Shown: positions 13,135-33,398 of the stretch, one piece after another | Layout: every line of letters starts with the position of its first letter | Numbering within the stretch: position 1 is the first letter of the stretch | Origin: a virus | Lineage: Duplodnaviria; Caudoviricetes | Virus record (IMG/VR): IMGVR_UViG_3300036785_000717 | Span: 1 to 52,354 of that record | Reading direction: 5' to 3' (one strand) | DNA: 52,354 nucleotides | Made by a program: the position numbers and the translations under genes | Notes under the pieces: model-generated | Seen by the model: the letters and a program-made list of their open reading frames with translations, nothing else | Databases searched by the model: none | Told to the model about the DNA's origin: nothing

Positions 13135-13392
13135 ATGAAGACGAAGATGCGCCGTCGTGGCGGCGAGGCCGCCGATGAAAAGGGCCGTGAGCGGCCCGCC
13201 AAGCACCACGAGCAGATGGAAGACCTCGACTACGCCAAGGAGGTTGGTCCGGTGCGCGGCGAGCATGGCAAGGCCACCGCCGGCAGGTCGCCGCGCAAGG
13301 CCGGCGGCGGCGTCGGCGCCGATACCAAGCCGTTCTCCTCGGCGAAGGGCGGCGAGAAGCCAGCCGGTCGCCACACGATGACGAGCGACTGA
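13135..13392 (+). CDS. Small basic protein with three xxxGG motifs
   Basis: RRRGG, RKAGG, SAKGG; K/R-rich. Confidence 0.65.
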   Translation: MKTKMRRRGGEAADEKGRERPAKHHEQMEDLDYAKEVGPVRGEHGKATAGRSPRKAGGGVGADTKPFSSAKGGEKPAGRHTMTSD

Positions 13393-13407
13393 CGCGAGTA
13401 GGACGCC

Positions 13408-14049
13408 ATGCGGCCGGTCACCTTCACGATGGGGCCCTACGCGGCGGCCTCCCAGACGGCGATCTGCCTCGCCCAGACGCCAGCTGCAGCCGGGCCGCTC
13501 ATCCTCAACGGCCCCACCGTGGCAGGCGGCGTCGCCACCCTCGATATCGCCCGCAATGTCGTGATCAACACGACCGCCGACGAGCGGCCCCGCACCCTCA
13601 CCATCGAGGGGACCGACTGGCGCGGCGATCCGATCGGCGAGGTGCTGCAGGGCGTCAACGTCGGGACCGTGGTGAGCGTCAACAACTACCTCACCATCAC
13701 CGCCGTGCGGATCAGCGGCCCGGCCGCAGGCGCCATCACGGTCGGCACCGCCTTGCCCGTCTACTCGCCCTGGGTGCGGCTGGACGACTACGGCGGCGCG
13801 TTCCTGAACTACTCGCTCGCAGTGTCGGGCGCGGCGACCTACACCGTGCAGCAGAGCTTCGATGACCCGAACTCGCCGACCAACCCGGTGGCGCCTGCGG
13901 CGGTGAACTGGCAGCCGTCGTCGATCGCCGCGCTCGTCGGCGCCTCGACCACGCAGCAGGGCGCCTACGGCTCCGTCCCGCCGTGGCTGCGAGTGATGTT
14001 CAGTGCAGGGACGGGATCGCTCACGGCGACGTTCCTGCAGCCCGGCTAG
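13408..14049 (+). CDS. Virion structural protein
   Basis: Beta-rich (TIEGTD..G.PI.E); structural operon position. Confidence 0.65.
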   Translation: MRPVTFTMGPYAAASQTAICLAQTPAAAGPLILNGPTVAGGVATLDIARNVVINTTADERPRTLTIEGTDWRGDPIGEVLQGVNVGTVVSVNNYLTITAVRISGPAAGAITVGTALPVYSPWVRLDDYGGAFLNYSLAVSGAATYTVQQSFDDPNSPTNPVAPAAVNWQPSSIAALVGASTTQQGAYGSVPPWLRVMFSAGTGSLTATFLQPG

Positions 14050-14054
14050 GGTCA

Positions 14055-15128
14055 ATGGGCGACCCCTTTCCCTACCCGACCCAGACCATCCCCGGTCTGC
14101 CGCCGGCAGGCGCCCTGCTGGGCGATGAAGAGGTCTGGGTGAACCAGGCGGGCGTCGATGCGCGCACCACGCTCAGCGACATCGTGGAGATCTCCTTCCT
14201 GGCGGGCGCCTCGACCACCGTTCCGCTGATCGATGTGGCCTGGGGCGCCGTCGGCGTGGGTTTGACCTGGGCGCGGGCCGATCACGCCCACCCGATGCCT
14301 CGGCTCGACCAGATCCTGCCGCCCGCCAACATCGTTTCGATGAACGGCTACAGCCTCATCGGCGTGGCCACCCCGGTGAGCCCCACTGACGCGGCCACCA
14401 AAGCCTATGTCGATGCGCTCATCCAGGGCATGGTGCTCAAGCCCAATGCGAACCTGGCCACCACCGCCGGCCTGCCCGCCAACACCTACAACAACGGCTC
14501 CGCAGGCTCCGGCGCGACGCTGACCGCCACGGCCAACGGCCTGCTCTCCGTCGACGGCTTCGCGACGGCGTCCGGCCAGATCATCCTCGTCAAGAACGAG
14601 GCCAACGCCGCCAACAACGGCCTCTACGACGTGACCCAGCCTGGATCCGCGTCCACCCCCTATATCCTCACGCGCAACGCCAGCATGAACCAGGCCGCCG
14701 AGATATCGGGCGCCCTGGTGTCGATCCTGCAAGGAACCGCCAACGCCAATGGGCTCTGGCTGGCCAACCCGACGGCCCCGGTGACGATCGGCACCACGCT
14801 GATCCCCTGGACACAGCTGAACGCCCAGACGGCGCTCCAGGCGGGCCTGGGCATCAGCATCGCCGCGAACACCGTCTCGGCGGTCGCCTACAACGGCATC
14901 TCCGTCACCGCCTCGGGCATCGGCGCGGTGGGCGTCGCGGGTCAGATCAGGGTCACGGCGGCGGGGATCGGCATCGACCCGGCCTACGTCGGCCAGGCCT
15001 CGATCACGACGGTGGGGGCCATCGCCACAGGAACGTGGACTGCGGGGGCCGTCACCGCGCCGTCGGTGACCGGGGCCACGCCGACGGCGGTGCTGGACTC
15101 GTTCGTCATCGATGCGGGGACGTTTTGA
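14055..15128 (+). CDS. Fibre/head-fibre protein
   Basis: DAATKAYVD, ILVKNE.NAANNGLY, C-terminal IDAGTF. Confidence 0.75.
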   Translation: MGDPFPYPTQTIPGLPPAGALLGDEEVWVNQAGVDARTTLSDIVEISFLAGASTTVPLIDVAWGAVGVGLTWARADHAHPMPRLDQILPPANIVSMNGYSLIGVATPVSPTDAATKAYVDALIQGMVLKPNANLATTAGLPANTYNNGSAGSGATLTATANGLLSVDGFATASGQIILVKNEANAANNGLYDVTQPGSASTPYILTRNASMNQAAEISGALVSILQGTANANGLWLANPTAPVTIGTTLIPWTQLNAQTALQAGLGISIAANTVSAVAYNGISVTASGIGAVGVAGQIRVTAAGIGIDPAYVGQASITTVGAIATGTWTAGAVTAPSVTGATPTAVLDSFVIDAGTF

Positions 15129-15170
15129 GTGGCTGGAATATTCCAGTGACGGAGTTCTCCTAAATAGGAG

Positions 15171-17156
15171 GTGGTCATGGTCAATAAGGTTCTCACGCTC
15201 CGGTCTACCGTCACCGGCAACCGTCCGCCAGCGGGGCATCTGCCTGGCGAACTGTACGTGAACCTTGCCGACAACCAACTCGGCATCGTCAATACATCAA
15301 GCGCCAACCAAGACCTCCTGGCCGTGCGCTACTTTTCCACCACCGCCAACTATGCAGTGGGCGACTTTGTGCTGCAGGGCGGCAACCTCTACCGCGCCAC
15401 GACGGCGAGCGCGCCGGGGGCGTTCAACGCCGCCAACTGGTCCATGGTGGCCACGGCGGCGACCCTCTCGGCGGGGTATCTGCCCCTCACGGGGGGAACA
15501 CTCACTGGCCCGCTTCAGGTCGGTGGCAACGTCACCCTAAACGCCCCGGCTGGCGCTGGCGCCCTCGTGGCTGTCAACGCCGGCCCTGGTTGGGGCAAGA
15601 ACCTTGCCTTCCAGACTGCAGGCGTTAACCGTTGGGTCGTCTACTCCAACAACACCGCCGAGAACCCCCCGAACAACACCGGGTCGGACTTCAGCATCAG
15701 TCGCTACACCGACGCAGGTGCCCTGGTCGACAACCCGCTCGCCATCACCCGCAGCAGCGGCGCGGTGGCCATCGGCGCGGGCGGGCTCACGGTGGCGGGC
15801 CCAGCGACGGTCTCCGGTCCCAACCCCACTATAACTCTGAGCGGCGCGAGTACAGTCAACCGCATGATCTACATGGAGAGCAACGGCTCCCTGCGCTGGA
15901 TCATGGGGGCGGATGCCGAGAACGAGACCGGGTCCAACGCCGGATCTAATTTGCTCATCCAACGGTTCAACGACAGCGGCGCGATGATCGACAACCCGGT
16001 TGTCATCTACCGCAACGACGGCTCAGTGCGCATCTCGAACCCCCTCTGGACGCCCCAAGCCAACCTCAACGCTGCCGCAGGAGTCTCTAAAGCCCTCTAC
16101 TTCATGACCGGCGGCAGCCCTCGCTGGGTTCTCTACAGCGACGGCTCAGCGGAGTCCGGCGGTAATGCTGGGTCAACTCTACAACTCACCAGCTACACCG
16201 ACGCCGGGGCTGGCCTATGCAACGTGATGAGCATCACGCGCGCCGGGGTTGTCACGTTCAACGCCACGCAACCCATCATCCACAGCGGCCCGGCCGCGAC
16301 CAACAGGGGGATGGCGATCTATACCGGCGCGACTTGCCGCTGGCAGGTGCTGGGCGACGCTACGGCCGAGAGCGGCGGCAACGCCGGGACCAACTTCGCC
16401 ATCGCCCGCTACAACGACGCCGGGGCCTACCTCGACGAGCCGATCACCATTCAGCGCAGCACCGGCGTGGTCGGTTTGAACATTGGCGCTGCCGCTCCCA
16501 CCAAGGGCTTGCAGGACAACTCCACCAACGTCGCTACCACCGCCTACGTCTTCAACAACGGCATACAAAGCGGTCTAAACACCGAGATCAACAGCCCGGC
16601 GACCCTGACGCTGGGCCAAGCCAACGCCGGCCATTTGGTGGGGCTGAACCGGACCTCGGGGACCATCACCACCGTCGTCTTTCCTTCGACGGGAGGCGCG
16701 GGCGCTTACGGGACTTTCCTTCTCAACAACCAGGGCGGCACCGCGATCGCCCTCAGCTTCCCCCTCGGCTGCGACTACGGGGGCACCCTCGCCGCCGGCA
16801 AACAGGTGATGGTGTCGGGCGACGGCAACGGCTTCTACCGCACCATCGCGACGGGCGGTTCCGGGACGCTCCTGATCGCGCCCGCCCAATTCGAGGCCGA
16901 CCACACCCTCACCGAGGCCGACTGGGACGACGGCAGCCTCCACTTCACCGAGGACGCCACGGTGACCATCCCGGCCGACTTCCCGCCCCGCGCGAAGGTC
17001 GAGGTCTCGTGCGCCAGGGGGGCGACGGTCACCTTCGCCTATGAGGGCGTGATGCTTGCCATCCCCGGCGGCGATGAGGGTCCCCACGACCTGGTCGGCC
17101 CGGCGATCACCATGATCCGGCGCCGGGGCGACGAGATCTGGCTGGGGTGCTGCTAG
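15171..17156 (+). CDS. Tail fibre / receptor-binding protein
   Basis: N-terminal LRS...P...PGELYVNLAD, YLPLTGGTLTG, four internal RW...AE..N.GS repeats, DNSTNVATTAYV. Confidence 0.8.
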   Translation: MVMVNKVLTLRSTVTGNRPPAGHLPGELYVNLADNQLGIVNTSSANQDLLAVRYFSTTANYAVGDFVLQGGNLYRATTASAPGAFNAANWSMVATAATLSAGYLPLTGGTLTGPLQVGGNVTLNAPAGAGALVAVNAGPGWGKNLAFQTAGVNRWVVYSNNTAENPPNNTGSDFSISRYTDAGALVDNPLAITRSSGAVAIGAGGLTVAGPATVSGPNPTITLSGASTVNRMIYMESNGSLRWIMGADAENETGSNAGSNLLIQRFNDSGAMIDNPVVIYRNDGSVRISNPLWTPQANLNAAAGVSKALYFMTGGSPRWVLYSDGSAESGGNAGSTLQLTSYTDAGAGLCNVMSITRAGVVTFNATQPIIHSGPAATNRGMAIYTGATCRWQVLGDATAESGGNAGTNFAIARYNDAGAYLDEPITIQRSTGVVGLNIGAAAPTKGLQDNSTNVATTAYVFNNGIQSGLNTEINSPATLTLGQANAGHLVGLNRTSGTITTVVFPSTGGAGAYGTFLLNNQGGTAIALSFPLGCDYGGTLAAGKQVMVSGDGNGFYRTIATGGSGTLLIAPAQFEADHTLTEADWDDGSLHFTEDATVTIPADFPPRAKVEVSCARGATVTFAYEGVMLAIPGGDEGPHDLVGPAITMIRRRGDEIWLGCC

Positions 17157-17849
17157 ATGAACGCGACGTCGGGAACCTACGGCTTTGAGCCGTCGCTGGG
17201 CGAGTTGACGCTGTACAGCTTCAACCTGGCCGGCGTGCGCCAGACCGCGCTCACCCAGAGCCACATGGAATCGGCGCGGATGGCGGCCAATATGGTCAAC
17301 GCCAGGTGGTCGGCGATGGGGGTGAACCTCTGGTCCGTCGATCTGCAGACGATCCAGCTGGTCCCTGGAAACGCGACCTATTCGGTCCCCAGGAACACCG
17401 TGGCCATCCTCGACGCCTATGCGACGCGCGGCCAGGGCGCCGGCCTGCGCAACCGCCCCCTCGTGCCGATCTCGCGCACGGAATTCGCCTCGTACTCCAA
17501 CCCCAACCAGCCCGGCGCCGTGAACGTCTACTGGTACGACCAGCTGCTCGCGCCGACGCTCACCCTGTATCTCTGCCCCGACGGGACCGATGACAGCATC
17601 TCCTACTACCGCCTGCGGCAGATGCAGGACGCCCAGCTGGCCAACGCCGCATCGCCGGAGATGCCGTTCTATTTCCTCGAAGCCTACGCCTATGGGCTCG
17701 CCCAGCGCCTGGCGACGATCTGGAACCCCGCACTGGCGACTGGCCTCAAGGCGTTGGCGGACGAGAGCTACGAGATCGCCGCCAACCGGAACACGGAGCA
17801 GGCGGCGTTCTATATATCACCGCAGATAGCGGGCTATTTCAGGACCTGA
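17157..17849 (+). CDS. Head-tail adaptor / tail tubular A-like protein
   Basis: W...GVNLW, ISR.EF...N....G...Y, F.EA...GLA.RLA motifs; position. Confidence 0.65.
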   Translation: MNATSGTYGFEPSLGELTLYSFNLAGVRQTALTQSHMESARMAANMVNARWSAMGVNLWSVDLQTIQLVPGNATYSVPRNTVAILDAYATRGQGAGLRNRPLVPISRTEFASYSNPNQPGAVNVYWYDQLLAPTLTLYLCPDGTDDSISYYRLRQMQDAQLANAASPEMPFYFLEAYAYGLAQRLATIWNPALATGLKALADESYEIAANRNTEQAAFYISPQIAGYFRT

Positions 17850-17854
17850 CGCAG

Positions 17855-18763
17855 ATGGCGTACGCCAGCAGAGCCGGTCGAGCGAGGGTAAGCGCCAGCA
17901 AGCCGCGCGCCTTCGCCGTCTGTCAGCGGTGCGGCTTCTGGTACAACCGCGACCAGCTGCAGAACCAGCGGGCGTGGCGCGGCGCGGCCCTGCTGCAGAC
18001 CTGGCTGTTCGTGTGCCCCCGCTGCCTGGACGTGCCGCAGGAGAACGACAGGGTGGTGGCTTTGCCGGCCGATCCCGTGCCGGTGCAGCTGCCCTTCCCT
18101 GAGGACTTCAGCGTCGCCCAGTCGGTGATGGGGCTCGCCGCGGCCGCGGAGATCGACCCGCACACGGGGCTCGCCAAGCCGCTCGCCACGACGGCGATGC
18201 AGACCACGGGTCTGACGCAGCTGCCGCTTCAGGCCGCCACCCTGGCGAGCGAAGCGGGCGGCGGTGTCGCCATGGTCACCACCAACGCGGCGTCGATGAT
18301 CATGGGCCCGGCTTCGCCCTGGGGTGCGCCCCAGAACACGGGTGCTATCATCATGGCGCCGACGCCGAGCGGACGGCCGCCCGGCTACGCCCTGGAGGCA
18401 GTGATGCCGACCGCCCAGACCAATGGCCAGACCGTGGAGTACGGCGTGCCGCTCCCCATCACCTCGATCATCGCCGATGGCACGCCGCTGGTGCGGGTCA
18501 CCTGCAACGCCCCGCACGGGCTTACCCTGAACAAGCAGATTGTGGTGCGCGGCACGCTCAACCCGCTCGCCGACGGCGCCTTCAGCGCGACGCCGATGAC
18601 CGCCACCGTATTCAGCTACGGCTGCTATTCCCCCGTGGAACGCGGCTCGCTGCTGGGCCCCGAGACGGTGATCGTCACCGCCCAGGTCGGCCTGCCGAGG
18701 GACTTCCCCGCGCTGCCGCAGACGGGCCTGCCGCAGTCCCGCAAGACCAAGCAGGCGCAGTGA
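17855..18763 (+). CDS. Structural protein with N-terminal CxxC-CxxC finger
   Basis: CQRCGF...VCPRCLD.PQ. Confidence 0.6.
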   Translation: MAYASRAGRARVSASKPRAFAVCQRCGFWYNRDQLQNQRAWRGAALLQTWLFVCPRCLDVPQENDRVVALPADPVPVQLPFPEDFSVAQSVMGLAAAAEIDPHTGLAKPLATTAMQTTGLTQLPLQAATLASEAGGGVAMVTTNAASMIMGPASPWGAPQNTGAIIMAPTPSGRPPGYALEAVMPTAQTNGQTVEYGVPLPITSIIADGTPLVRVTCNAPHGLTLNKQIVVRGTLNPLADGAFSATPMTATVFSYGCYSPVERGSLLGPETVIVTAQVGLPRDFPALPQTGLPQSRKTKQAQ

Positions 18764-19368
18764 TGGCCGACGGCGGCTCCCCGATCCAGACCATCCCCAA
18801 CCTGCCGCCCGCGATCAGCCTCGCGGGCCCTGAGCAGCTGTGGATCAACCAGGCGGGCGTCGACCGGCGCGCCGGCATCGATGACATCGCCAATTTCGTG
18901 GAACTCCAACTCGGCTTTGCGGGATCCGTGGTCACCTCGTTCAACGGTCGCCACGGCGACATCCTCCTCACCGCCGCCGACGTCACGGCGACGGGCTTCG
19001 GGGCGGGCTCGTTCGTGCCCGTGACGGGCTACGCGACGGTCACGGGTCCGCTCACCTTCACGCCCGCAGCCGGGCGCGATGCCTACATCGTGTTGAACAA
19101 GAGCGCCTCCGGCCCCGCCGACTACATCCTGGGTCAGACCGCCGGTCTCGCACGCTGGCAGGTGACGCTCGGCGACACCGCCCCTGAGAGCGGCTCGAAC
19201 ACGGGCTCCAACTTCGCGATCTCGGCCACCGCCGATGACGGTGTCACGTCGCTCGGCGCCTGGCTGAGCATCGCCCGCGCCACGGGCGTCGTCACCATCA
19301 CCTCCCTCCTGGGCGCCGGATCCGGGGGGACGATCAACAACTTCACCCTGGACGCCGGCACGTTCTGA
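18760..19368 (+). CDS. Short fibre protein
   Basis: VTSFNGRHGDI, one copy of the fibre repeat, C-terminal LDAGTF. Confidence 0.7.
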   Translation: MMADGGSPIQTIPNLPPAISLAGPEQLWINQAGVDRRAGIDDIANFVELQLGFAGSVVTSFNGRHGDILLTAADVTATGFGAGSFVPVTGYATVTGPLTFTPAAGRDAYIVLNKSASGPADYILGQTAGLARWQVTLGDTAPESGSNTGSNFAISATADDGVTSLGAWLSIARATGVVTITSLLGAGSGGTINNFTLDAGTF

Positions 19369-20129
19369 TGGCGAGCCCCAACGCCCTCACCTACAACGGC
19401 CTCGTCCAACAGGTGGCGCTGCTCGCCGCCTACAAGACCCAGACGGTGAACGGCGTCCTTCAGGGCATGGAGCCGGACTTCACCAGCCTCATCCCGCAGA
19501 TGCTGAACTACGCCGAGGACCGCGTGCAGCGCGACCTCGAACTCCTGGCGCTGCAGACGCTCAGCCCCGCCTACACCTTGACCGCCGGCAACCCGATCCT
19601 CGCCGTCCCCACCGCCGACTTCACCGTCGTGCAGGACGTACTGGTCAGCGGCGAGCCCTTGAACCCCGTGGCGCGCAGCTACATCCAGACCCTGTGGCCG
19701 CCGACCTCGACGCCCGGCCTGCCCAGGGTGTTCGCCATGCTGGGCGGCGACCTCGCCACGGCGGGCGTCACCTCGACCCTGATCCTCGTCGGCCCGACGC
19801 CCGACCAGCCCTACCCGACGACGCTGATCGGCGAGGTGCGCTCACCATCACTCGCGACCTACGCCAACCCCTCGCAGGCGGCCCTGACGACCACATGGAT
19901 CTCGACCTGGCTGCCTGAACTCCTGGTCATGGCGGCGATGGTCTACGTCAGCGCCTACCAGCGCGACTTCGGCCGCCAGGCCGACGATCCGCAGATGGCG
20001 CAGTCCTACGAGAACCAATACGGGACGCTGCTGCAGGCGGCGAAGGGGGAGGACTTCCGACGCCGCCTGGAGGCCGATGCATGGACCGCCAGGGAGGCCT
20101 CGCCGGTCGCCACGCCGACCCGCACATAG
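19368..20129 (+). CDS. Head-tail adaptor-like protein
   Basis: AEDRVQRDL, GPTPDQ.Y, TTWIS...PELL, QSYENQY. Confidence 0.65.
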   Translation: MASPNALTYNGLVQQVALLAAYKTQTVNGVLQGMEPDFTSLIPQMLNYAEDRVQRDLELLALQTLSPAYTLTAGNPILAVPTADFTVVQDVLVSGEPLNPVARSYIQTLWPPTSTPGLPRVFAMLGGDLATAGVTSTLILVGPTPDQPYPTTLIGEVRSPSLATYANPSQAALTTTWISTWLPELLVMAAMVYVSAYQRDFGRQADDPQMAQSYENQYGTLLQAAKGEDFRRRLEADAWTAREASPVATPTRT

Positions 20130-20139
20130 GAGACGTGCG

Positions 20140-20304
20140 ATGACCCTCGACCTGATGACCTTCGTCCTGTTCGTGCTGCTGATCTTCAGCGGCGTCGGGT
20201 GGTGGGGGCCGCCGGGTCCGTGGACCGGCCAGCGCGTGGGCTACGGGATCCTGGGGCTGTGCTGCCTCATCGCCTTCCTCGGCCACCTGTTCGGGAAGTT
20301 CTGA
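20140..20304 (+). CDS. Small two-TM membrane protein (holin candidate)
   Basis: RBS AGGAG; 54 aa with two hydrophobic helices. Confidence 0.55.
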   Translation: MTLDLMTFVLFVLLIFSGVGWWGPPGPWTGQRVGYGILGLCCLIAFLGHLFGKF

Positions 20305-20308
20305 GGTC

Positions 20309-20324
20309 GCCCCCTCAGGGGGGC
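20309..20324 (+). terminator. GC hairpin, possible weak terminator
   Basis: GCCCCC-TCAG-GGGGGC right after the stop codon; poor U-tract. Confidence 0.35.
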
Positions 20325-22876: not shown

Positions 22877-25759
22877 ATGCCCCTCGCGCACGGATCCTCG
22901 CAGAAGGTCGTGAGCCGGAACATTGCAGAAATGCGTCACTCAGGCTTCCCGCAGGACCAGGCGGTCGCCGCCGCCATGCAGGCCGCGCGTCAGGGCCGGG
23001 CTGTCAGGGCGACCGGCGGTCGGACCTATCCTCTGGCCCCGCGCTCAGAGTGGTACGGCAACGCCAACTACCAGCAGACCGGCGGCAAGCTACAGCACAT
23101 GGCCCCGCAGGAATTCCTCTCTCAGGCGCGGCCCCTGACGATCGATGAGACGTCCCGCGACAACATCGATGACCTGAAGAACCACATCCAGTCAGGCCGC
23201 ACGCTGGACCCACTGACCATCGACCAGAACGGCAAGGAGGATGGTCGCCACCGCGCCCACGCCGCCCAGGAACTGGGGATCAGCAAGGTGCCGGTGATCA
23301 CATGGCCGAGGGCCGCCAAGGCGAAGGGCGGCGAGAACGCTCCAGGCGGCAAAAGTTTCTTCGAGGTGGCGCCAGGGCACACCTGGGACGCCAAGCAGCA
23401 GCAGCAGTGGGAGCGCCTGCATCCGCGAGCGAAGGCGGAGATCTCCGGGCGGATGATCGATGAGTTCATGCCCCGCTGGATGCGCGACACGGGGATCACG
23501 GGCAAGCTGAAGCCTGGCCTGGGCGGGTTCGAGGGCTCGACCAACCCCAATTTCGCTTTCGAGCCGGACGACCCCACCCGCCTGGCCGAGGCGTCGAACG
23601 GCCTGGGGAACCTGTACCGCCAGGACAGCATGATGGCGGCGCATGAGCACCCCTTCGCCGGCAGTTCACCCTCCGGCCTCGTGCGGGTGCATCTGCCGCA
23701 GGGCATGGCGCCTGAGCAGATCCACGCGCTCTACAGTCGCCTGCATGGTCAGGGCCTCGCCGAGGGCCACAGCACCGACCCTGGCGCGGGGACGATGGAT
23801 ATTCTGGCCGGAGCGAACGGCGACGAGGCGAAAGAGCACGCGAAGAAGGTGGATCAGGCGCTGGGCGGCAAGTATGACGTCTCGTCCGCCGACACGCACA
23901 TCGCGTTCCCGCAGCATGGAGAAGACTATGGCGTACCGGGGACACATCCCGCCGGGGCCGGATCACCCGCATCACAAGCCGACAGTGCTGTCCAGCAGCA
24001 AGCCCGCACCCGCCTCCAAACCCTCATCCAGCAAGCGACCCGCCAAGGGGGCGGCCACAAAGAAGGACCGCTGAACCTCGCGCCGAGGGCTCGCGGGCAG
24101 ACCGTCGACGAGCCCGTCGGCAACCGCTACCCCGGCATCTACGGAGACCCTAGAGCCCTGGCGGCTGAGGCGGCCTCGCGGGTCGCACCAGAAAGCCCCG
24201 CCCTGAAGCGCCTGTTCGGCGTGACACGCGCCGAGATGTACGAGCGCGGCGCGTTCAGGCAGGGCAACATCGAGCCCAATTTGCCGTTCGGCCCCAGCGC
24301 GAAAGTGAACCCCGCTGCGGCGAGGGTGATGACCCGGCGCAACGCGCAGCGGCTGCAGGACATCCTGCACGAGGGGACGCAGCACGAGGGCCTGCGCCAC
24401 GGCATGATGGCTTGGTACTACATGGACCCGGTCTTCGACCGGCTGCACGACATCGTCGGCCAGCACGAGGCCGTGCGCCACTACAACCGGGTGAACACCC
24501 TGATGGGCATGGCCAGCCCGGCCTCGGAGGTGGAGACGGAGATCAACCGGGGGCTCGCGGCCAACTACGCCGCGCAGCAGGGCCGCTTCGGTGAGTTCGT
24601 CAAGCACGCCGGCACCGCCGAGGCGCAGCGCGGCGCGGACTTCCCAGCCGATCTGCGGACGGTGATGGCGCACCCCTACCACCGCACGTCGCATTCCGGG
24701 CCGATGCAGCGTTACCTTGAGCGCGGCGACATCTCCGACATGCAGACGGTGAAGGTGCCGACCTACATCCCGGCCAGCGGGACGGCGGCGACGGGCTTCC
24801 AGACGCGCTGGCCGGTGCCGGACGCGCACTTCACCCGCCTGCTGGGCATGGCCGACACACGCGACACCAGCGAGCCTGGCGTGTCGATGAAGCCGGGCGA
24901 GTACAAGCCGATCGCGCCGTGGTGGCGAGAGAAGGTCGCGGGTCCGATGGGCATGCAAGCGGTGCCTGGGCAGGCCTTGGCGTGGGGGACAGGCAGCGGC
25001 GCGACCGGCGTCACCTCGCCGATCGGCGCGCCGAAGCTGGAACTCCTGGCCAACCACATCATGGGCGTGGCGCAGCGACATGGGATCGCCCCGGAGGCCG
25101 CCAGGGACGCGGTGATCAAGGGAGACATCTACGCGAAAGGCGGTCGCGTACCCCTAGCCGAAGGCTTCGCCCGTGGTGGCCGCGCCGAGGGCGGCCCGCT
25201 GCTCTTCCACTCCAACCTGCACGGCGGCGAGCACCACGGCGTCGCCGCGCATGCGCCTGGCGTCCACCGGATGCACGTCGGCCCCATTCACTCCCCGGTG
25301 GCCGGGCGCACCGACCATCTCCCCATGCATGTGCCGTCGGGCTCCTATGTGTTGCCCGCCGATGTTGTGTCCAGCTACGGGGAAGGAAACACGAGCGCCG
25401 GCTTCAAGGTCATGAAACGCCTGTTCGGCGGCGCGCCGTACGGCCACCAGGGCGGCCCCTATGGGCAGTCTGGCGCGCCCTACAACCAGACGGGCGGCCC
25501 CTACGGCCAGGGCTCAGGCCCCTACGGCGAGGCCCTGCAGAACCAGTCGCGCGGCGGCCGGGCGACCGACGGCGCCCGCGACAAGGGCGTGCCGATCGTC
25601 GCGGCCGGCGGCGAATACGTCCTCTCGCCTGACCAAGTCCGGGCGCAGGGGAAGGGCGATCCTGAACTGGGCTGCCGCGTGCTCGACCAGTTCGTTAGAC
25701 GCAGCCGCGACAAGCACATAAAAACGCTGAAGGGCCTGCCAGGGCCCGCAAAAGACTGA
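22877..25759 (+). CDS. Polyvalent virion-internal protein (ParB-like, unknown and glycosylase-like domains)
   Basis: DGRHRAHAA..LG...VPV; WY...SP...K...Y...DAH..R...QA.AW; C-terminal GRTDHLP/GEYVL module. Confidence 0.7.
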   Translation: MPLAHGSSQKVVSRNIAEMRHSGFPQDQAVAAAMQAARQGRAVRATGGRTYPLAPRSEWYGNANYQQTGGKLQHMAPQEFLSQARPLTIDETSRDNIDDLKNHIQSGRTLDPLTIDQNGKEDGRHRAHAAQELGISKVPVITWPRAAKAKGGENAPGGKSFFEVAPGHTWDAKQQQQWERLHPRAKAEISGRMIDEFMPRWMRDTGITGKLKPGLGGFEGSTNPNFAFEPDDPTRLAEASNGLGNLYRQDSMMAAHEHPFAGSSPSGLVRVHLPQGMAPEQIHALYSRLHGQGLAEGHSTDPGAGTMDILAGANGDEAKEHAKKVDQALGGKYDVSSADTHIAFPQHGEDYGVPGTHPAGAGSPASQADSAVQQQARTRLQTLIQQATRQGGGHKEGPLNLAPRARGQTVDEPVGNRYPGIYGDPRALAAEAASRVAPESPALKRLFGVTRAEMYERGAFRQGNIEPNLPFGPSAKVNPAAARVMTRRNAQRLQDILHEGTQHEGLRHGMMAWYYMDPVFDRLHDIVGQHEAVRHYNRVNTLMGMASPASEVETEINRGLAANYAAQQGRFGEFVKHAGTAEAQRGADFPADLRTVMAHPYHRTSHSGPMQRYLERGDISDMQTVKVPTYIPASGTAATGFQTRWPVPDAHFTRLLGMADTRDTSEPGVSMKPGEYKPIAPWWREKVAGPMGMQAVPGQALAWGTGSGATGVTSPIGAPKLELLANHIMGVAQRHGIAPEAARDAVIKGDIYAKGGRVPLAEGFARGGRAEGGPLLFHSNLHGGEHHGVAAHAPGVHRMHVGPIHSPVAGRTDHLPMHVPSGSYVLPADVVSSYGEGNTSAGFKVMKRLFGGAPYGHQGGPYGQSGAPYNQTGGPYGQGSGPYGEALQNQSRGGRATDGARDKGVPIVAAGGEYVLSPDQVRAQGKGDPELGCRVLDQFVRRSRDKHIKTLKGLPGPAKD

Positions 25760-26293: not shown

Positions 26294-26295
26294 CG

Positions 26296-29200
26296 GTGGG
26301 CGGCAAGACCTCCCAGTCGAGTTCGCAAGTCTCCATACCACCTGAAGTATTGGCTCGATATAATAGCGTCAACACTCAGGCTCAGCAAGTCGCAGCGACG
26401 CCCTTCCAGCAGTACTCGACGGACCCCAACGCCTTCGTCGCGCCAGTCACGCCTGAGCAGAACACCGGGATCGGCACGATCAACCAGGCCGGCGCGAACG
26501 TGAACCCGATGTTCAACACCGCCGCCAACACGGCGGTGAACGCCTATCAGGGCGCCGTGCCGGGCCTACAGGCGGCGGGCCAGACGGGCGCGGCGGGCTT
26601 CGGGGGCGCGCAGAACTACCTCAACGCGGCGACCGGCTACACGGCGGCGGGAGGGCAGGCGGTCGATCCCTCGCAGATCACGCCAGGCGCCATCGGCCAG
26701 TACATGAACCCCTACCTGGGGACCGTGCTGGGCTCGACCGAGGCGCTGATCAACCAACAAAACCAGCAGCAGCAAGCCGGGCAGATGGGCACCGCGATCT
26801 CGTCCGGCGCCTTCGGCGGCGATCGCTCTGGCATCGCCGCTGCGGTGCTGGCGGGCCAGCAGCAGCTGGCGGCCGGGCAGACCTACTCGGGCATCACCTC
26901 GGACGCCTACAACCAGGCGCTGGCGACCGCGCAGCAGCAGCAGGGCGTCGGCCTCGCCGCCGGCCAAGCCAACCGCGCCGCGCTCCAGCAGACCGGCCAG
27001 AGCCTGGCGGGCCTCGGCGCGCAGGGGTTCGGGCAGGCGCAGACCGAGGCGCAGCTGCAGGCCGCGCTCGCGGGGCAGGGCTTCGGTATGGGGCAGACCG
27101 AGGCGCAGACCCTGGCCGGTCTGGCGCAAGGCCAGCAGCAGGCCGGACTGGCGCAAGGACAGGCGGAACTCGGCGCCGGGCAGGTTCAGCAACAGACCGA
27201 ACAGGCCGGAAAGACGGCCCTCTACAACCAGTTCCTGCAGCAGCAGTCCTACCCGTTCCAGACCGCGCAGTTCCTGGCCAACATCGCCGAGGGCACTGGA
27301 GCACTGTCGGGCTCGACCACAACTGCCATACAGCCGCAGTCGATCTTCTCCGACGAGCGCCTGAAGGAGGACATGACGCCAGTCGGCAAGGGCTTCGACG
27401 GCGCCAACATCTATCGGTTCCGCTACAAGGGCGATCCGACTTGGCGCATGGGCCTCTCCGCCCAGGAGACCGAGCGCCGGCACCCCGAGGCGGTCGCCGA
27501 GGCCCCGTCCGGCTTCAAGGCGGTGGACTATGGCCGCGCCACCCAGGAGGCCGCACACCTCGGCGGCTTCGCCAGGGCGGTCAACGACAACGACATCTAC
27601 GCAGAGCCGCAGCGCGTCGCGCGCCAGGCTGGCGGCTACCAGGGCTTCGGCGGCGTCGCCTATCCATCTGGCGTGAACCAGTTCGACCTCGCCGGGATGC
27701 TGCAGGCGCAGGAGGGGATGTACGGACCCTACGCGGAAAGCGGCCTCTACGGCGGCAAGGCCGGTGGCGCGCCGCACGGCGGTTCGAGCTACGTGCCGGC
27801 GGGCAATATGCCGATCTCGCACCTGTCCCCGGCGGCGGCGCCGAAGATGTCAAATACAAGCGCGCTGCATCAGGCCGCCCAGGCCGCCGATGATGTGAAG
27901 ACCGCTCGGGAGGGCGCCGCCACGATCAGCAAGGGCTTCAACACGATCAAGGACAAGCTGTCGGGCGAAGACACCATGGACAGCAACACCCCTGGCCATC
28001 AAGGCGAGGGGACGGTGGCTCAGGCCTCCACCGACCTCAACCAAGGCCTGAGCCAGATCGGCGGCACTACGCCGGCCGCCGACAGCAGCACCCCGCCGCC
28101 GTCCGACGACAGCACCACCCCGGCGCCGACCGACGGCGGCGAACCGCTCGGTGACTATGCCCGTGGCGGCTTCGCCCGCGCCCGGCGCCGCCAGGATGGC
28201 GGCGGCACGGACGATTTCAACTCCAACCCGCAGCCCGACGATCCCTACGACCCGCAGGGGCCCAGCCTCCACATCCCCGACACCGCGTCGAAGGTCACGC
28301 CGCTGGAGCCCGCCAAGCCGCCCAGTTCGGGAGATGGCAGCAGCAGCACGATGGGCGACCTGAAGGACATCGCCACCATCGCGAAGATGTTCATGAGGAG
28401 CGGCGGCCGGGTCGGTCGCCAGGGATACGGCGTCGGCGGATGGCTGAAGGATGTCGCCGACACCGTCGGTGGCTTTGAGGGCGGGCTCTTCAAGGACGTC
28501 ACGGGAGAGACGCCTCAACTCGCTCACGGCGGTCGCGCCGGGTTCAGGGCGGCGGCGGGCGGACGGCAGGGGTTTCAAGATGGGGGCAGCCCGGATAACC
28601 CCGATCTTGCCGGGGGGTTCTGGAACGCGGCTGGTCAGTTCGTCAGTGGCATCCCAACCGGCTTCGCGCGGGCGGCGTCCAACACCGCGAACTACGCGCC
28701 TGATCTCCCTACTGCGCCAGCGAAGGGAGCGGGCGAGATGGCTGGCTCGATTCCGGGGGTCATCGTTGGAGCGGGCGAGCAGGCGTTGAACGATGTCGGG
28801 ACGGGTCTTGCTCATGCTGGAGCCAGCTTCGGGCGTGGCCTGTTCAACCAGCCCAATCCTACTCCCGTGGCTCCCGCCAACCCGGCGGATGTGCCGGTCT
28901 CGACATTCGGACCCCCGCCGCAGCAGACAGCCGCCACCGCCGCCGCCGCTCATGCCCAAGCGGCGCAGCACCACGCGACCGTCGCGCGTCAGGCGGCGCA
29001 TCAGGCGGCAGCGGCGCCCGCTGCACCTCCTGCTGGGTTTGCAGGCGCCTCACCGTCCGCCGCCACGCCTGGCGCCGGGTTTTCGCCAGCCGCCGCCACT
29101 GCCCCGCCGCAGACTCCCGACGCCGCGATGGCCAACGCTCAAGCCGGGCAGGGGCCGGTGGACGTGGGCGCCCTCGACGCCGCCTACGGGGCCTCCGGGT

Positions 29201-30531
29201 TTGGGGCCGCCGGCAGTGGCGCGCCAGGTGCGCCCGCAGCAGCCACTGCGCCCCCCAGCGCGCCAACCGGAGGCGGCGCAGCCACGCCCAGCGGGCAGGC
29301 GCCGCAACACCACGGCGGCATCGGCAGCGCGCTCGCGGGCGCGGCCGAGGGCCTCGTCGGCTACGACCCGAAGAGCGGCAAGTTCAACACCGACCAACTG
29401 ATGCGTCTGTTCTCGGGCATCGCGGCGATGGGCGCCACGCCCACCGTGCATCCGCTGTTCGCGCTCTCCCAGGGCCTCGGCGGCTACGCCAACGCCTACT
29501 ACGGACAGCAGCAGGAGAGGGCCGAGATCGCGCGGACGGAGGCCCAGACCGGCCAGATACAGGCCGCTGGACGCGACACCGACGCCAACATCGTGGCGCG
29601 TGTCGCAGCCGCCAACGGTATCCCTGCAGGGTGGACGTTGGATAAGGGTCCCGCAACGGGAGGCGGGAGGACCATCCAGGGAGAACCGACGTCCTACAAC
29701 CCCAGCGGCATCTGGCATGCGGTGCCAGCGGCGAGCGCTCTGGGTCCGGGTTCACCGGGGTCCGCCACCTGGGCCGGCGCCACGCCTCTGACACCGGACA
29801 TCGCCTTCGACCGCTACAACCGGAACCAGGCGACCATGTCGCCGCAACAACGGCAGGACAACAGCCAGGCCATCCAGCGGACGCTCAGCGCCGGACCCCA
29901 GGCGGCCGGCAGTCTCGTCAACGATCTCGAAACGGCCGACACCGTCAGCGCCCTCAAGGACAGTCACGTCAGCGGCGACATGCTCGCCCCCATCAAGCAA
30001 CGCTACGTCAGCACCATCAACGGCATCGCCCGCATGCTCGGGGCGCCTGAACTCGCCTCCGGCGACGTTACCAATGCTCAGTTGCTGACCAAATTGCAGA
30101 CCATGGGCGCGATGGCTGATCCGGCGACGAAGGCCAGCATCGAGCATTTGCAGGCCGGCCTGATCTCCCGCCCCGGCGTCCAGCTGGACAAGGCGGCGCA
30201 GGCGGCGCTCGCCGCCCGCATTCTGGTCAACGACCGTTCCGTGATCGACTCGTCCAACACCTACCGGGACATCGGCAACAGCACGACGGTGCCCAACTCC
30301 TTCATGGCCAGCGACGCGCAGCAGGAAAACGTCCGGCGCCATGCGCCGCAGACCTACGAAACCAACGTCAACGACCTCGGCCACCTGATGCTCGACAAGC
30401 GTTGGAACACATGGCGAAGCATCATGGGCCGTGATCCGAGCGATGAAGCCAGGCAGGGCCTCGTGCAGCGTCTGGACGGCAAGTACGGCCAAGGCTTCTC
30501 GGAAAGCTATCTGAGCGGGCGGGGCATGTGA
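26296..30531 (+). CDS. Ejection/pilot protein with internal peptidase S74 domain
   Basis: MGGKTSQSS start, QYMNPY, GAFGGDR.GI, Q-rich helices; FSDERLKED...IYRFRY...GLSAQE...PEAV...VDY at 27346-27540. Confidence 0.8.
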   Translation: MGGKTSQSSSQVSIPPEVLARYNSVNTQAQQVAATPFQQYSTDPNAFVAPVTPEQNTGIGTINQAGANVNPMFNTAANTAVNAYQGAVPGLQAAGQTGAAGFGGAQNYLNAATGYTAAGGQAVDPSQITPGAIGQYMNPYLGTVLGSTEALINQQNQQQQAGQMGTAISSGAFGGDRSGIAAAVLAGQQQLAAGQTYSGITSDAYNQALATAQQQQGVGLAAGQANRAALQQTGQSLAGLGAQGFGQAQTEAQLQAALAGQGFGMGQTEAQTLAGLAQGQQQAGLAQGQAELGAGQVQQQTEQAGKTALYNQFLQQQSYPFQTAQFLANIAEGTGALSGSTTTAIQPQSIFSDERLKEDMTPVGKGFDGANIYRFRYKGDPTWRMGLSAQETERRHPEAVAEAPSGFKAVDYGRATQEAAHLGGFARAVNDNDIYAEPQRVARQAGGYQGFGGVAYPSGVNQFDLAGMLQAQEGMYGPYAESGLYGGKAGGAPHGGSSYVPAGNMPISHLSPAAAPKMSNTSALHQAAQAADDVKTAREGAATISKGFNTIKDKLSGEDTMDSNTPGHQGEGTVAQASTDLNQGLSQIGGTTPAADSSTPPPSDDSTTPAPTDGGEPLGDYARGGFARARRRQDGGGTDDFNSNPQPDDPYDPQGPSLHIPDTASKVTPLEPAKPPSSGDGSSSTMGDLKDIATIAKMFMRSGGRVGRQGYGVGGWLKDVADTVGGFEGGLFKDVTGETPQLAHGGRAGFRAAAGGRQGFQDGGSPDNPDLAGGFWNAAGQFVSGIPTGFARAASNTANYAPDLPTAPAKGAGEMAGSIPGVIVGAGEQALNDVGTGLAHAGASFGRGLFNQPNPTPVAPANPADVPVSTFGPPPQQTAATAAAAHAQAAQHHATVARQAAHQAAAAPAAPPAGFAGASPSAATPGAGFSPAAATAPPQTPDAAMANAQAGQGPVDVGALDAAYGASGFGAAGSGAPGAPAAATAPPSAPTGGGAATPSGQAPQHHGGIGSALAGAAEGLVGYDPKSGKFNTDQLMRLFSGIAAMGATPTVHPLFALSQGLGGYANAYYGQQQERAEIARTEAQTGQIQAAGRDTDANIVARVAAANGIPAGWTLDKGPATGGGRTIQGEPTSYNPSGIWHAVPAASALGPGSPGSATWAGATPLTPDIAFDRYNRNQATMSPQQRQDNSQAIQRTLSAGPQAAGSLVNDLETADTVSALKDSHVSGDMLAPIKQRYVSTINGIARMLGAPELASGDVTNAQLLTKLQTMGAMADPATKASIEHLQAGLISRPGVQLDKAAQAALAARILVNDRSVIDSSNTYRDIGNSTTVPNSFMASDAQQENVRRHAPQTYETNVNDLGHLMLDKRWNTWRSIMGRDPSDEARQGLVQRLDGKYGQGFSESYLSGRGM

Positions 30532-33398
30532 TGGCCGTCAGCCCGGAAGATCAGGCCGCTCTCGACGCCGCCGATACTCTGCCGGCGAGCCAAGGGGCGA
30601 CGCCGAATAAGCCAGGCGGTATCAGCCCGGAAGATCAAGCGGCGATCGCCGCCGTCGATGATCTGCCCCCTTCCGGCACGATGCCCGGATCGACACCGGA
30701 TGAACCAGCCCCGACACGCTCCCTGGGACCAGCGCGCCTGCACATGCAGGCTCACCAGCCGCGACAGACGCCGCCCAGCGCTCCGCCTGCGGCGCAACCC
30801 CCGCCCGCGCCCAGCTGGAGCCAGGTGCCGGGCCTCTTTGCGCAGAACATCCTGCCCAACACCGGCCAGGTGATCGGCCAGACGCTTGAGGCGCTCAAGC
30901 CGGCGAACTGGGGCCACGATGTCGGCGCCGTAAACGATCTCGCGGTCGGCGCGCTCTCGAAAGCGGGCATCTATGGCGGCTCAGCGGCTCAGAAGAAGCA
31001 GGATCAGGCGCTGCTGGACGCCGTGATCGCCGCCAAGAAGCAGCAGTGGTGGGGTCAGAACGGCGAAGGCCTGCGCCGCTCGCTCGCCTACACCCCCGCT
31101 GAGGATCTGATGGATGTCGCCACTGCGGCCAGCCTCGTTGGCGCTCCAGCTGAACTCGCGGCCAGGGCGCCGGGGATCGTTGGCGACGCCACGGCGGCCG
31201 GCGCCGACGCCATCGCGCGCGCGGCCAGAGGGGTCGAGGGGGTCACCAACCCGCTCAGCTATCCGCTGAAAGCTGCGAACCTCGCCGCTCGCGCGCCAGG
31301 CGCCGTGGTGCGCGGCGTGACCGGCGGCGCTCGCGCTGCGACGGGCGCGGCCGGCGCGGCGACGACCGCCGAAGACGCGCTACGGGCCGTCCATCCTACG
31401 GAGCCGATCCCGACCGAGATGCTCACAGGCGAGGCCGCCCCGCCTGAGGCCGCCACCCAGGTGGCGAACTCGCGCGCGACGTGGCGCGGCCACGCAGCCG
31501 ACGCGGCCACCGCCCTCACGGGCGCCGATGCGCCAGATCCCGCCGCGCTCGGTGCCGCCCTTGAGAAGCAGCAGATCGCCGCCCACAACGGCGCGATCGA
31601 CGGCTACGACACGGTCAGGCAAAACACGGGCCAGTTCGCGCCCGGTTTCGCGCCGATGCTGCACGCCGCCGTCGATGATGCGTTCAAGAAAACTGGACTG
31701 CCGCCGATCAACGGGCCGGGCGCGCTCAGCACGTTGCCGGGGACCTACGGCAAGACGCTGGACGCGATGAAGGCGATGCACGCCCAGGTCGATGACCTGG
31801 CGGCGAACAACGCCCTGACCCCGAACAACCTGATGAACGTGCGCCAGGAGATCGGCGCGGCCTACAGGGGCGCGAGCGGCTCCGACGTGAAGGGTCTGCG
31901 CACGCTGCAGGACGCGCTCGACACCCACATCACCAACATGGCCAACGCGGGCGCCTACAGCGGGGGCGACGGCGCTGCGGTCGCCGCCAGCATGCGCAAC
32001 GCCATCGACGGCATGCGCAACTACCACGAGACCTTCAACGAGGGCCCCGCCTCCACGGCGGTCGGACTGCTGAGGCGCGGCCAGGTCACAGATCCCACCG
32101 GGCGGCTGACGCCATCGGTCGCGGGAACGCAGGAGGCGGTCACCGCGAACCTGGGCAAGGGCCTGATCAACTCGAACCTGTCGACGCCCGGCACGGCTCC
32201 GCTTCTCTACAACCACCTCCAGAAGATCATGGGTGGCCCCGGCTCAGAGGGCGCGAAGACCCTCGACAATTTCGTCCGCCAGAGCGCCACCCGGACGAAC
32301 ACCGTCGGCGACCAGACCACGCTCGCCGCCAAGCCGGCGCAGATGCAGAACTTCCTGACGTCGCCGACGAGCCTGAGCGGCAAGGTCTTCACCCCCGAAG
32401 AGCACGCGCATCTCAGCAACATCGCCGCGACGGATCGACTGGCGCAGCAGGCGCCGGCACGCAGCACGCGCGGCAAAAGTTTCCTGAAGAGCCTCGTCTA
32501 TGCGGGCAGCCGCCACGCGGCCGGGGCTATCCTCGGATCGCATTTCGGGCCACCCGGCGCGTTCGCTGGCGAGCAGTTCGTCAGCCATGTCGTCGATCCG
32601 ATGATCGCGGCGCGAACCGCCGCCAAGGCGTTCAAGGGGGCGAAGCGCGCGCGCGCGTCCTTCGTCAACCCGCGTACGGTCGCCACGATGGCCAATCTGG
32701 GCTACGGCGCGACGCCGCAGTCCCCTCAGGAGCGGCAGCAGGAAGCCCAGCAGAACGACCAAGCCATCACCGCCGCCGCGCCACCCGTCGCGGACGTCGC
32801 CAAGGGCGCCGACATGGGCAAGGCGCCGCCCGCGACGCCGACCGATATCGACGCCGTCGTACGCATGGCCGCCGCCGAGGGCGACCAGACGCCGCAAGGG
32901 TGGCAGGCCGTCGCGGCGGTGATGCGCAACCGCGCCTTGCAGAGCGGCCAGGCGTTGACGGATGTCGCCGCCGAACCCCGACAGTTCGAGGCCTACGGCA
33001 ACCGGAACTACACGGCCCTGACCCCTAGCACGCCGCAGTACGCGCGGATCCTGGCGGCCATCGCCCCCGTCCTCGCCGGCAAAGTCGATCCCACCGGGGG
33101 CGCCGACAGCTACTACGCGCCGAAGCTACAGGCGCAAAAGAACCGCCCGAAGCCGGGCTGGGATGACGGCAGCGGGCAGCCGATCGGCTCGCAACTGTTC
33201 TTCCATGGGAAGTACCGCCGCCCGGAAGAGCAGGTCGCGGCCCGCGCCGCAGGCGGCCAGGTCGTCGATATGACGGAGCAGCTGATGCGACGCGCGGAAC
33301 GGGCCCAGAAGGTCGCCCAGGCGTCCACCAAGCCATTGCTTGGACTCTCGGACGATACGGTGGCTCGCGCGCTCCAAGTGGCTCAGCGAGGTTTTTGA
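30528..33398 (+). CDS. Ejection protein with C-terminal SleB-like cell wall hydrolase
   Basis: AAAE...G..AVAAVMRNR...QF...DPTGGA..YY...P.W...IG...F at about 32840-33210. Confidence 0.8.
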   Translation: MMAVSPEDQAALDAADTLPASQGATPNKPGGISPEDQAAIAAVDDLPPSGTMPGSTPDEPAPTRSLGPARLHMQAHQPRQTPPSAPPAAQPPPAPSWSQVPGLFAQNILPNTGQVIGQTLEALKPANWGHDVGAVNDLAVGALSKAGIYGGSAAQKKQDQALLDAVIAAKKQQWWGQNGEGLRRSLAYTPAEDLMDVATAASLVGAPAELAARAPGIVGDATAAGADAIARAARGVEGVTNPLSYPLKAANLAARAPGAVVRGVTGGARAATGAAGAATTAEDALRAVHPTEPIPTEMLTGEAAPPEAATQVANSRATWRGHAADAATALTGADAPDPAALGAALEKQQIAAHNGAIDGYDTVRQNTGQFAPGFAPMLHAAVDDAFKKTGLPPINGPGALSTLPGTYGKTLDAMKAMHAQVDDLAANNALTPNNLMNVRQEIGAAYRGASGSDVKGLRTLQDALDTHITNMANAGAYSGGDGAAVAASMRNAIDGMRNYHETFNEGPASTAVGLLRRGQVTDPTGRLTPSVAGTQEAVTANLGKGLINSNLSTPGTAPLLYNHLQKIMGGPGSEGAKTLDNFVRQSATRTNTVGDQTTLAAKPAQMQNFLTSPTSLSGKVFTPEEHAHLSNIAATDRLAQQAPARSTRGKSFLKSLVYAGSRHAAGAILGSHFGPPGAFAGEQFVSHVVDPMIAARTAAKAFKGAKRARASFVNPRTVATMANLGYGATPQSPQERQQEAQQNDQAITAAAPPVADVAKGADMGKAPPATPTDIDAVVRMAAAEGDQTPQGWQAVAAVMRNRALQSGQALTDVAAEPRQFEAYGNRNYTALTPSTPQYARILAAIAPVLAGKVDPTGGADSYYAPKLQAQKNRPKPGWDDGSGQPIGSQLFFHGKYRRPEEQVAARAAGGQVVDMTEQLMRRAERAQKVAQASTKPLLGLSDDTVARALQVAQRGF

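Follow-up and report, generated by a model that had tools for sequence, protein, structure and literature searches.

An A-x-G-G joint between exchangeable modules of putative phage ejection proteins as a candidate maturation cleavage site

The window analysed here is the whole of IMG/VR record IMGVR_UViG_3300036785_000717 (52,354 nucleotides, linear, ~80% complete, 63-71% G+C), from a Caudoviricetes virus whose virion genes lie on the plus strand from ~11.0 to 35.4 kb. The block studied comprises genes 22877, 25763, 26296, and 30528, the first, third, and fourth of which encode the large proteins A, B, and C. These three proteins share a short motif of consensus [R/K, less often Y/F/M/H]-A-x-G-G. 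In protein A and its relatives, the motif delimits exchangeable cargo, and domains are inserted, lost, and reordered exactly at its copies. Protein A is a carrier, in which an N-terminal anchor of ~45 residues and a C-terminal anchor enclose zero to several cargo domains. This conserved joint between exchangeable modules may well be, at roughly even chances, a maturation cleavage site that a protease cuts before the alanine.

The new elements are the shared joint string and the part it plays, throughout a very large unnamed family, as the boundary of cargo cassettes; the maturation of T5 and lambda tape measure proteins and the concept of polyvalent proteins are its already known kin. No description of the motif was found in the literature searched (open-access text). 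An original prediction, made from the letters of the window, had seen the motif in four genes (the three above and gene 13135), and had proposed a diglycine-delimited system that loads, cleaves, or ejects swappable cargo domains.

Exchangeable Cargo in Protein A

Relatives were collected by scanning viral contigs with protein B; 227 were confirmed, and 80 loci were kept. These loci contain 57 distinct homologues of protein A (family A), 181 to 1261 residues long, and all of them have the N- and C-modules in common. The short forms (~190 residues) are made of the N-module, the motif, a short variable linker, and the C-module (alignment A1). The related genome MW202675 encodes such a short form of 194 residues, and residues 49 to ~795 of the window protein are thus an insertion that starts directly after RATGG.

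This insertion holds three cassettes, the first of which, ParB-like, is found in four different settings. It comes first in the window protein (left border RATGG|RTYPLAP, right border ..KAKGG), is the sole cassette of the 276-residue L030 (RASGG|KAL-SYPIAP and WPRPARAHGG), stands last before the C-module in P0010 (RAEGG|P-AYPLAP and WPR|QERAEGGG), and lies inside the C-module in P0098 (HRADGG|RAYPLAD and MWAHKAGGG). P0010 holds all three window cassettes, the other two in a different order; cassette 2 is represented there by an 81% identical block, and the junction matching the window cluster at 25130..25195 reads IYARGGRAARAEGG. Cassette 2 has no Pfam match and belongs to no known family. Cassette 3 has no Pfam match either, and its likeness to DUF7178 is a lead; residues 489-751 resemble a 267-residue viral protein with template modelling (TM) scores of 0.68/0.89.

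Cargo in the relatives includes ADP-ribosyltransferase (ART), NUDIX, and other domains. Among 30 long members of family A, Pfam recognised ART-PolyVal, NUDIX, DUF6098, and DUF7178, with ART-PolyVal (PF18760) above the cut-off in four of them. The motif stands on both sides of these domains: at 251 and 452 around an ART at 306-442 in P0024, at 224 and 406 around an ART at 251-396 in P0021, and at 86 and 311 around an ART at 110-293 in P0064. In P0033, a motif at 127 precedes DUF6098 (135-246), and further motifs at 309 and 438 enclose NUDIX (315-430). The gain, loss, and permutation seen in homologous loci bear out the swappable cargo of the original prediction.

Distribution of the Motif

In the window, residues were shuffled inside each protein (400 shuffles each, 200 for the other open reading frames, ORFs). 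Gly-Gly (GG) dipeptides as such are at background, since the 57 found in the four genes pooled (4 in 13135, 17 in 22877, 29 in 26296, and 7 in 30528) compare with a shuffle mean of 54.4 and are reached in 149 of 400 shuffles. Raw GG counts in the window mean little, partly because of a glycine-rich 181-residue ORF after the last fibre-like gene (34836-35381; Gly_rich_2, E-value 2.9e-4, below the cut-off). The 17 strings listed in the original prediction are all present where it placed them, as a selection of the 57 GG positions. Its rule of a basic, aromatic, or Met residue followed by A-x-G-G is obeyed by seven of them, the R-A-x-G-G-type strings of the window (RATGG, KAKGG, YAKGG, FARGG, RAEGG, YARGG, and RAAGG), and broken by the other ten.

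In contrast to GG alone, the strict pattern [RKFYWM]A.GG is enriched, with 8 copies in the four genes pooled vs 1.24 expected, a count that none of 400 shuffles reached; the same holds for [FYWML]A[RKH]GG (4 vs 0.12, 0/400). Gene 22877 is the main source of the signal (5 strict motifs vs 0.35, 0/400). Genes 26296 (1 vs 0.69, 200/400), 30528 (1 vs 0.26, 94/400), and 13135 (1, KAGGG, vs 0.07, 26/400) contribute one copy each, and three occur in the window's 44 remaining ORFs (vs 1.97, 61/200). Enrichment over shuffled sequence holds for the strict motif and not for GG. The strict patterns were defined on the same data, so that the window alone is weak evidence, and they were therefore tested in the relatives.

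There, density was expressed as strict motifs per 1000 residues in the homologue families of the 80 loci and compared with the expectation from composition. Family A has 6.70 (expected 0.58), family B (26296) 2.49 (0.55), and family C (30528) 1.19 (0.45), vs 0.14 (0.24) for the hub-like family (20388) and 0.09 (0.32) for the acetyltransferase family (25763). Only families A, B, and C are enriched, other virion genes being at background. Gene 13135 drops out of the four genes originally named: it has two homologues in related loci, the strict motif occurs in neither, no family matches it, and nothing indicates a virion-internal location.

In family A, Ala occupies position -2 at 42% of GG sites, vs 10.8% Ala overall, and the residue preceding it is R (31%), K (23%), Y, M, or F (7% each), or H (5%; 577 sites). 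Pro follows GG at 8% of sites. The number of copies grows with protein length, from 1.74 (100-250 residues) to 4.86 (900-1600 residues; r 0.64), with a median spacing of 103 residues.

Anchors and Homologues of Protein A

A GG at residues 41-50, directly after the ~45-residue N-module, is present in 54 of the 57 family A homologues. At this first site, 45 homologues have R, K, or H three positions ahead of GG, Ala comes next in 41, and x is free; Pro follows GG in six of the 54 copies. The AlphaFold2 model of a 193-residue short homologue (L068; mean predicted local distance difference test, pLDDT, 82; predicted TM score, pTM, 0.60) shows the N-module as a helical hairpin (H9-21 and H27-41), followed by a disordered stretch at motif site 1. 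The C-terminal part consists of two similar units, each a β-hairpin with two helices, and a disordered PYG-rich linker runs between them. Ahead of the second unit lies motif site 2, also of low confidence, and both sites thus fall in low-pLDDT linkers. A Foldseek search of the family A model against the PDB gave no match at E<=1e-3, and a wide fold search (VIA) returned helical-hairpin matches only (Z<=5.2, residues 6-45). The fold searches therefore indicate no protease fold and allow no fold assignment for family A.

The family is very large. In a HMMER scan, the C-module matched 1956 clusters (50% identity) at E<=1e-3, with listed lengths of 115 to 1500 residues, and nearly every one of the best 150 of these 1956 clusters carries several [RKHYFM]A.GG copies. 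With a short form as query, a word-index search gave 3156 proteins at E<=1e-5; among the 120 listed, those named by their source are all called "hypothetical protein".

Proteins B and C

Peptidase_S74 domains are usually C-terminal and are discarded after folding. The S74 domain of protein B is internal, followed by a further ~1000 residues both in the window and in relatives. Its Ser...Lys pair is present, as SDERLK in the window and as SD.R.K in most B homologues, and the domain probably cleaves protein B as well. A predicted cut at SDERLK would divide it into a 351-residue N-terminal part and a 1060-residue C-terminal part. The motif-rich region follows. In the closest relative, L004, six of its eight sites are kept or motif-like, and the site at residue 443 is kept in four of four relatives. 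B homologues in general show GHFAxGG ~72 residues and [FY]AxGG ~95 residues after the S74 serine, then further copies.

In protein C, the motif follows a SleB-type hydrolase. A GG lies 45-56 residues from the end in 35 of 35 distinct homologous tails, as a strict motif in 29 of them (most often RASGG); the motif frequently occurs twice, with an 8-residue period, and a conserved helical tail comes after it. The original prediction had placed copies around recognisable domains, which is found for the ParB-like segment (itself a weak call), after S74, and after the hydrolase; the glycosylase-like domain that it also mentioned was not found.

Gene 25763, between A and B, encodes a GNAT acetyltransferase. 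Its AlphaFold2 model (pLDDT 84.4) has 323 PDB matches at E<=1e-3, all GNATs among the matches listed, and its Pfam score is 13.6 bits (cut-off 20.7). The QARGG string of this protein was rejected as a joint motif, being the GNAT acetyl-CoA loop (conserved as R..A.GGRA). Most B homologues begin with MGGK[TS][STG].[ST], and this start, next to the GNAT gene, might reflect N-terminal modification of an ejection protein. N-myristoylation of protein B by 25763 was rejected, as the protein has a single-lobe general GNAT fold and not that of a two-lobe N-myristoyltransferase; N-acetylation by it is a lead.

Comparison with Tape Measure and Ejection Proteins

The processing of proteins of the tail lumen and of ejection proteins is known case by case, from T5 pb2, lambda gpH, TP901-1 Tal, and P22 gp7. 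For the tape measure protein pb2 of phage T5, PMC10038345 gives a cut "after R1127", between the hydrophobic stretch and the muralytic part. Residue 1127 of the sequence on record is the R of ..FVP-R-A-E-G-G-M.., with 92 residues beyond the cut. Of five GG sites in the 1219 residues of pb2, one is a strict motif, and the mapped cut falls inside it. Five of five T5-like tape measures, with identities as low as 37%, have R-A-x-G-G as an invariant string, in which x is E, E, E, N, and S. A cut before Ala fits the conserved basic or aromatic residue of the joint and the frequent Pro after GG. T5 pb2 resembles protein A in having the same string and in losing an enzymatic C-terminal piece from a protein that leaves via the tail before the DNA. 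It differs in being a siphovirus tape measure with one site, vs a carrier with several cassettes.

Lambda gpH (L089, J02459, 1043-3601; residues 729-785) has HF-ATGG 120 residues and GY-ATGG 75 residues from its C-terminus, followed by a hairpin-like segment (GEFV). According to a 2025 article (PMC12617516), a C-terminal piece of ~14 kDa from a glycine-rich region is removed from gpH, the site and catalyst being stated there as unknown. We predict a cut at F733|A734, which would give computed pieces of 12.5 and 79.8 kDa, vs the reported ~14 kDa. The link that the original prediction drew between FAxGG and tape measures is found in lambda (FATGG...GEFV) and T5, two of the six tape measures examined. 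In those of HK97, SPP1, 80alpha, and P2 (L090-L093), a GG lies 36-68 residues from the C-terminus (VGTGGGG, SYSGG, SNLGG, and SLTGG).

In the Tal of phages TP901-1 and Tuc2009, a Gly-rich junction before the lytic domain is a proteolytic site, and a Gly-to-Arg change blocks the cut, as PMC11409707 reports. This junction, NGGGNSGGGD, has no basic residue and no Ala, and belongs to a tail-tip protein of Gram-positive siphoviruses. The gp7 of P22 is a podovirus ejection protein from which the host enzyme OpdA removes 20 residues at ..SYPE|KGGKGG (record note and sequence). It is a host-protease precedent, in another register, without Ala and without cargo cassettes.

Polyvalent proteins (Iyer et al. 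2017, PMC5512222) likewise combine several unrelated effector domains in one virion-delivered polypeptide. Protein A shares this feature, with three distinct cassettes of weak family calls, and ParB-like and NUDIX domains occur as its cargo too. The authors of PMC5512222 predict processing by zincin-like or assemblin-like peptidase domains, which were not found here; the words "glycine" and "linker" occur zero times in the main text. The internal proteins of T4, with their capsid-targeting sequences, and the ejection proteins of phiKZ and SPN3US are described as packaged and ejected proteins with a short targeting part and a cut site. They require a prohead protease, and neither S78 nor S77 had a match in the five complete relatives searched (the S77 control being silent). 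The prohead-protease sites of T4, phiKZ, and SPN3US end in Glu.

Adenovirus protease cuts at (M/L/I)XGG-X and pS273R of African swine fever virus (ASFV) at GG-X, a P4-P1 pattern that A-x-G-G resembles. In contrast to these systems, no cognate protease was found here, the conserved residues lie upstream of GG, and T5 is cut before Ala.

Cleavage Site or Uncut Joint

As judged from gene context, A, B, and C are probably ejection (internal virion) proteins of a podovirus lineage. The virion block also holds a head protein (phrog_371), two SU10-type adaptors, a 695-residue hub-like protein (phrog_3287), and fibre-like genes, and MW202675 shows the same gene order, with its B homologue annotated "internal virion protein D". 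In the proposed mechanism, the [R/K/aromatic]|A-x-G-G joints, placed in disordered linkers between the modules of A, B, and C, would be cleaved just ahead of Ala, behind the basic or aromatic residue, as mapped in T5 (R1127|AEGG). Either a host enzyme, as OpdA is in the case of gp7 of P22, or an unrecognised activity would make the cut, and would thereby set the anchors and the cargo free as separate polypeptides, able to leave via the narrow tail channel ahead of the DNA. From these comparisons we infer, with evenly balanced confidence, that the joint is cleaved in this phage.

A protease was sought in several ways. Peptidase_C48 (PF02902) had no match in five complete relatives, with a control that gave a signal in one genome. 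S49 and S78 also had none in these five; the same result for Peptidase_C5 (PF00770) and S77 is uninformative, their controls being silent everywhere. No protease family other than S74 was found among the 53 ORFs of the window, itself ~80% complete, or the 70 ORFs of a complete relative (G001), and no zincin-like, assemblin-like, or other processing peptidase in protein A, its 30 long relatives, or G001.

These searches thus point to no recognisable phage-encoded protease for the joint, which weighs against cleavage, as do the following points. Many proteins that undergo no cleavage have Gly-rich linkers at their domain borders, and tandem copies 8 residues apart look repeat-like (GGRIGRASGGR in family C, YAKGGRV..FARGGRAEGG in the window). 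The link to T5 and lambda appears to rest on a string of five residues: hhalign gave no relevant match between family A and T5 pb2, and aligned A1 weakly with the C-terminal part of lambda gpH (27 columns, P 0.0092, probability 4.4%). Four of the six tape measures examined, HK97 gp16, SPP1 gp18, P2 gpT, and that of 80alpha, lack the strict motif. BLAST alignment endpoints fall within 6 residues of a motif in 26% of cases vs 12% at random (~2-fold), a test that carries no weight because motif and C-module follow each other in a fixed order, which confounds it. Homologue counts are counts of non-independent events, and, among 50,697 records of cultured phages searched by tblastn, the C-module matches one, MW202675, itself metagenomic.

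The main rival to cleavage is an uncut hinge, a serious possibility that we nevertheless hold to be doubtful. The motif would form a flexible or turn-forming joint for packing in the virion and for threading through portal and tail, might dock to a component of the channel, and would border cassettes only because recombinants with intact joints are viable. Such a hinge agrees with the position of the motif in low-pLDDT linkers following a helix, the 8-residue tandem repeats in families C and B, the protease searches without match, and the frequent Pro after GG. However, a plain linker needs neither a basic or aromatic residue nor an Ala two before GG, and the identical string is the mapped cut site of T5. 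It is quite unlikely that A-x-G-G instead leads a small folded module (~5-15 residues, then a β-hairpin with ..G-E-[YF]-V..) shared with the C-termini of tape measures, the cargo-side copies being remnants of duplicated units. VPIVAAGGEYV after the motif in family A, GEHGTEVVTP in T5-like tape measures, and the GEFV segment of lambda are in line with it, and hhalign does align the lambda and family A hairpins. Yet that score is not significant, and most cargo-side copies run straight into unrelated domains (RATGG|RTYPLAP.., or the copies before ART and NUDIX).

The diglycine polyprotein system of the original prediction, in which a phage cysteine protease of adenain, ASFV, or Ulp type would cleave behind GG, has become very improbable. 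The motif resembles (M/L/I)XGG in form and does delimit domains, but PF02902 is missing from the five complete relatives and no such family was found among the ORFs of the window or of G001. The conserved basic residue and Ala lie upstream and Pro often follows GG; the T5 cut before Ala makes the "diglycine protease" register probably wrong. Chance, in Gly/Ala/Arg-rich proteins of a 68% G+C genome, would account for GG at background and for the ten listed strings that break the proposed rule. It is hardly tenable overall, given a strict count reached in no shuffle and a motif kept in homologues of very different composition; it is refuted for 22877, 26296, and 30528, and is the best reading for 13135.

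If the joint is a cut site, it would provide a testable prediction for lambda gpH and a handle on the protease, as well as a rule to tell anchors from injected effectors (ADP-ribosyltransferases, NUDIX, ParB-like) in huge "hypothetical" virion proteins. If it is only a hinge, it would still give a precise map of recombination points. An unlikely extension of the cleavage reading is that [R/K/aromatic]|A-x-G-G is a general maturation signal of tail-travelling proteins, in siphoviruses (T5 and lambda) and in a very large podovirus family. Were this true, the lambda cut at F733|A734 would follow, along with one common, probably host-side protease, the identity of which has been open since the 1970s, and a "grammar" for plugging cargo enzymes between two virion anchors. 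A bolder addition to this extension would have the GNAT 25763 acetylate the Ala N-termini freed by cutting, together with the conserved N-terminal Gly of protein B.

Features of the Window

Table 1. Proteins A, B, and C, the GNAT gene, and gene 13135, with their domains and motif copies (aa, amino acids)
Feature	Position	Strand	Remarks
Gene 13135, 85-aa basic ORF	13135..13392	+	Unsupported as part of the system
Protein A, 960 aa	22877..25759	+	N-anchor, three cargo cassettes, C-anchor, motif copies between; phrog_2423 on aa 1-42
N-anchor, aa 1-43	22877..23005	+	MPL..GSS..N..EM..P.DQAVAAA..AR; predicted helical hairpin (alignment A1 and AlphaFold2 model)
Motif site 1, RATGG	23006..23020	+	Conserved in homologues; pLDDT <50 at the same place in the model
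Cassette 1, ParB-like, aa 49-147	23021..23317	+	Weak domain call: phrog_26377, E 2e-4; ParB_N, E 0.022, below cut-off
Motif KAKGG	23318..23332	+	Right border of the ParB-like cassette
Cassette 2, aa 153-392	23333..24052	+	Ends TRQGGG; tblastn matches to separate phage proteins over aa 158-406
Cassette 3, aa 393-751, DUF7178-like	24053..25129	+	ESM Atlas feature score 0.93 to viral DUF7178 clusters
Motif cluster YAKGG-R...FARGG-RAEGG	25130..25195	+	Directly before the C-anchor
C-anchor, aa 796-960	25262..25756	+	Two β-hairpin and helix units; H.GPIHS.VAGRTDHLP..V.SGSYV; VPIVAAGGEYV
Degenerate motif site 2, QSRGG	25544-25558	+	Between the two C-anchor units
GNAT acetyltransferase, 176 aa	25763..26293	+	Between A and B; 68 distinct homologues in related loci
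Protein B, 1411 aa	26296..30531	+	Conserved MGGKTS N-terminus, internal S74, motif-rich middle, conserved C-terminal part
Peptidase_S74, aa 352-400	27349..27495	+	SDERLK; Pfam 25.6 bits, cut-off 22
Motif-rich region of B	27622..28587	+	RQAGG, YARGG, RQDGG, MRSGG, YGVGG, LAHGG, AAAGG, FQDGG
Protein C, 956 aa	30528..33398	+	SleB-type cell-wall hydrolase
Hydrolase_2 in C, aa 788-870	32889-33137	+	31.3 bits, cut-off 27
Motif RAAGG in C	33243..33257	+	46 aa before the C-terminus; conserved helical tail after it, 33258-33395

Gene Context

Neither a terminase nor a portal gene is present in the window, which is consistent with its estimated completeness, and both are probably located in an unsequenced stretch that would join the ends of the record. 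In the complete relative G001, the small terminase is of Sf6 type and the portal of SU10 type. Positions 780-5567, upstream of the virion genes, bring together a PAPS-reductase-like gene (phrog_424), a C-5 cytosine DNA methylase (PF00145, E-value 1.7e-37), and a 682-residue HATPase_c_3 protein, which may form a DNA-modification or anti-defence cluster. After the fibre genes, a tyrosine integrase (36007-37140) is followed by a repressor, a YqaJ/RecE-like exonuclease, and a primase-helicase. The replication region also contains a second ParB-like gene (47638-48492; ParB_N E-value 5e-4, and several ParB PHROGs), separate from the cassette of protein A. In G001, a Cpn10/GroES-like gene (L086:4623-5015, E-value 2.8e-7) lies a few genes past the portal gene.

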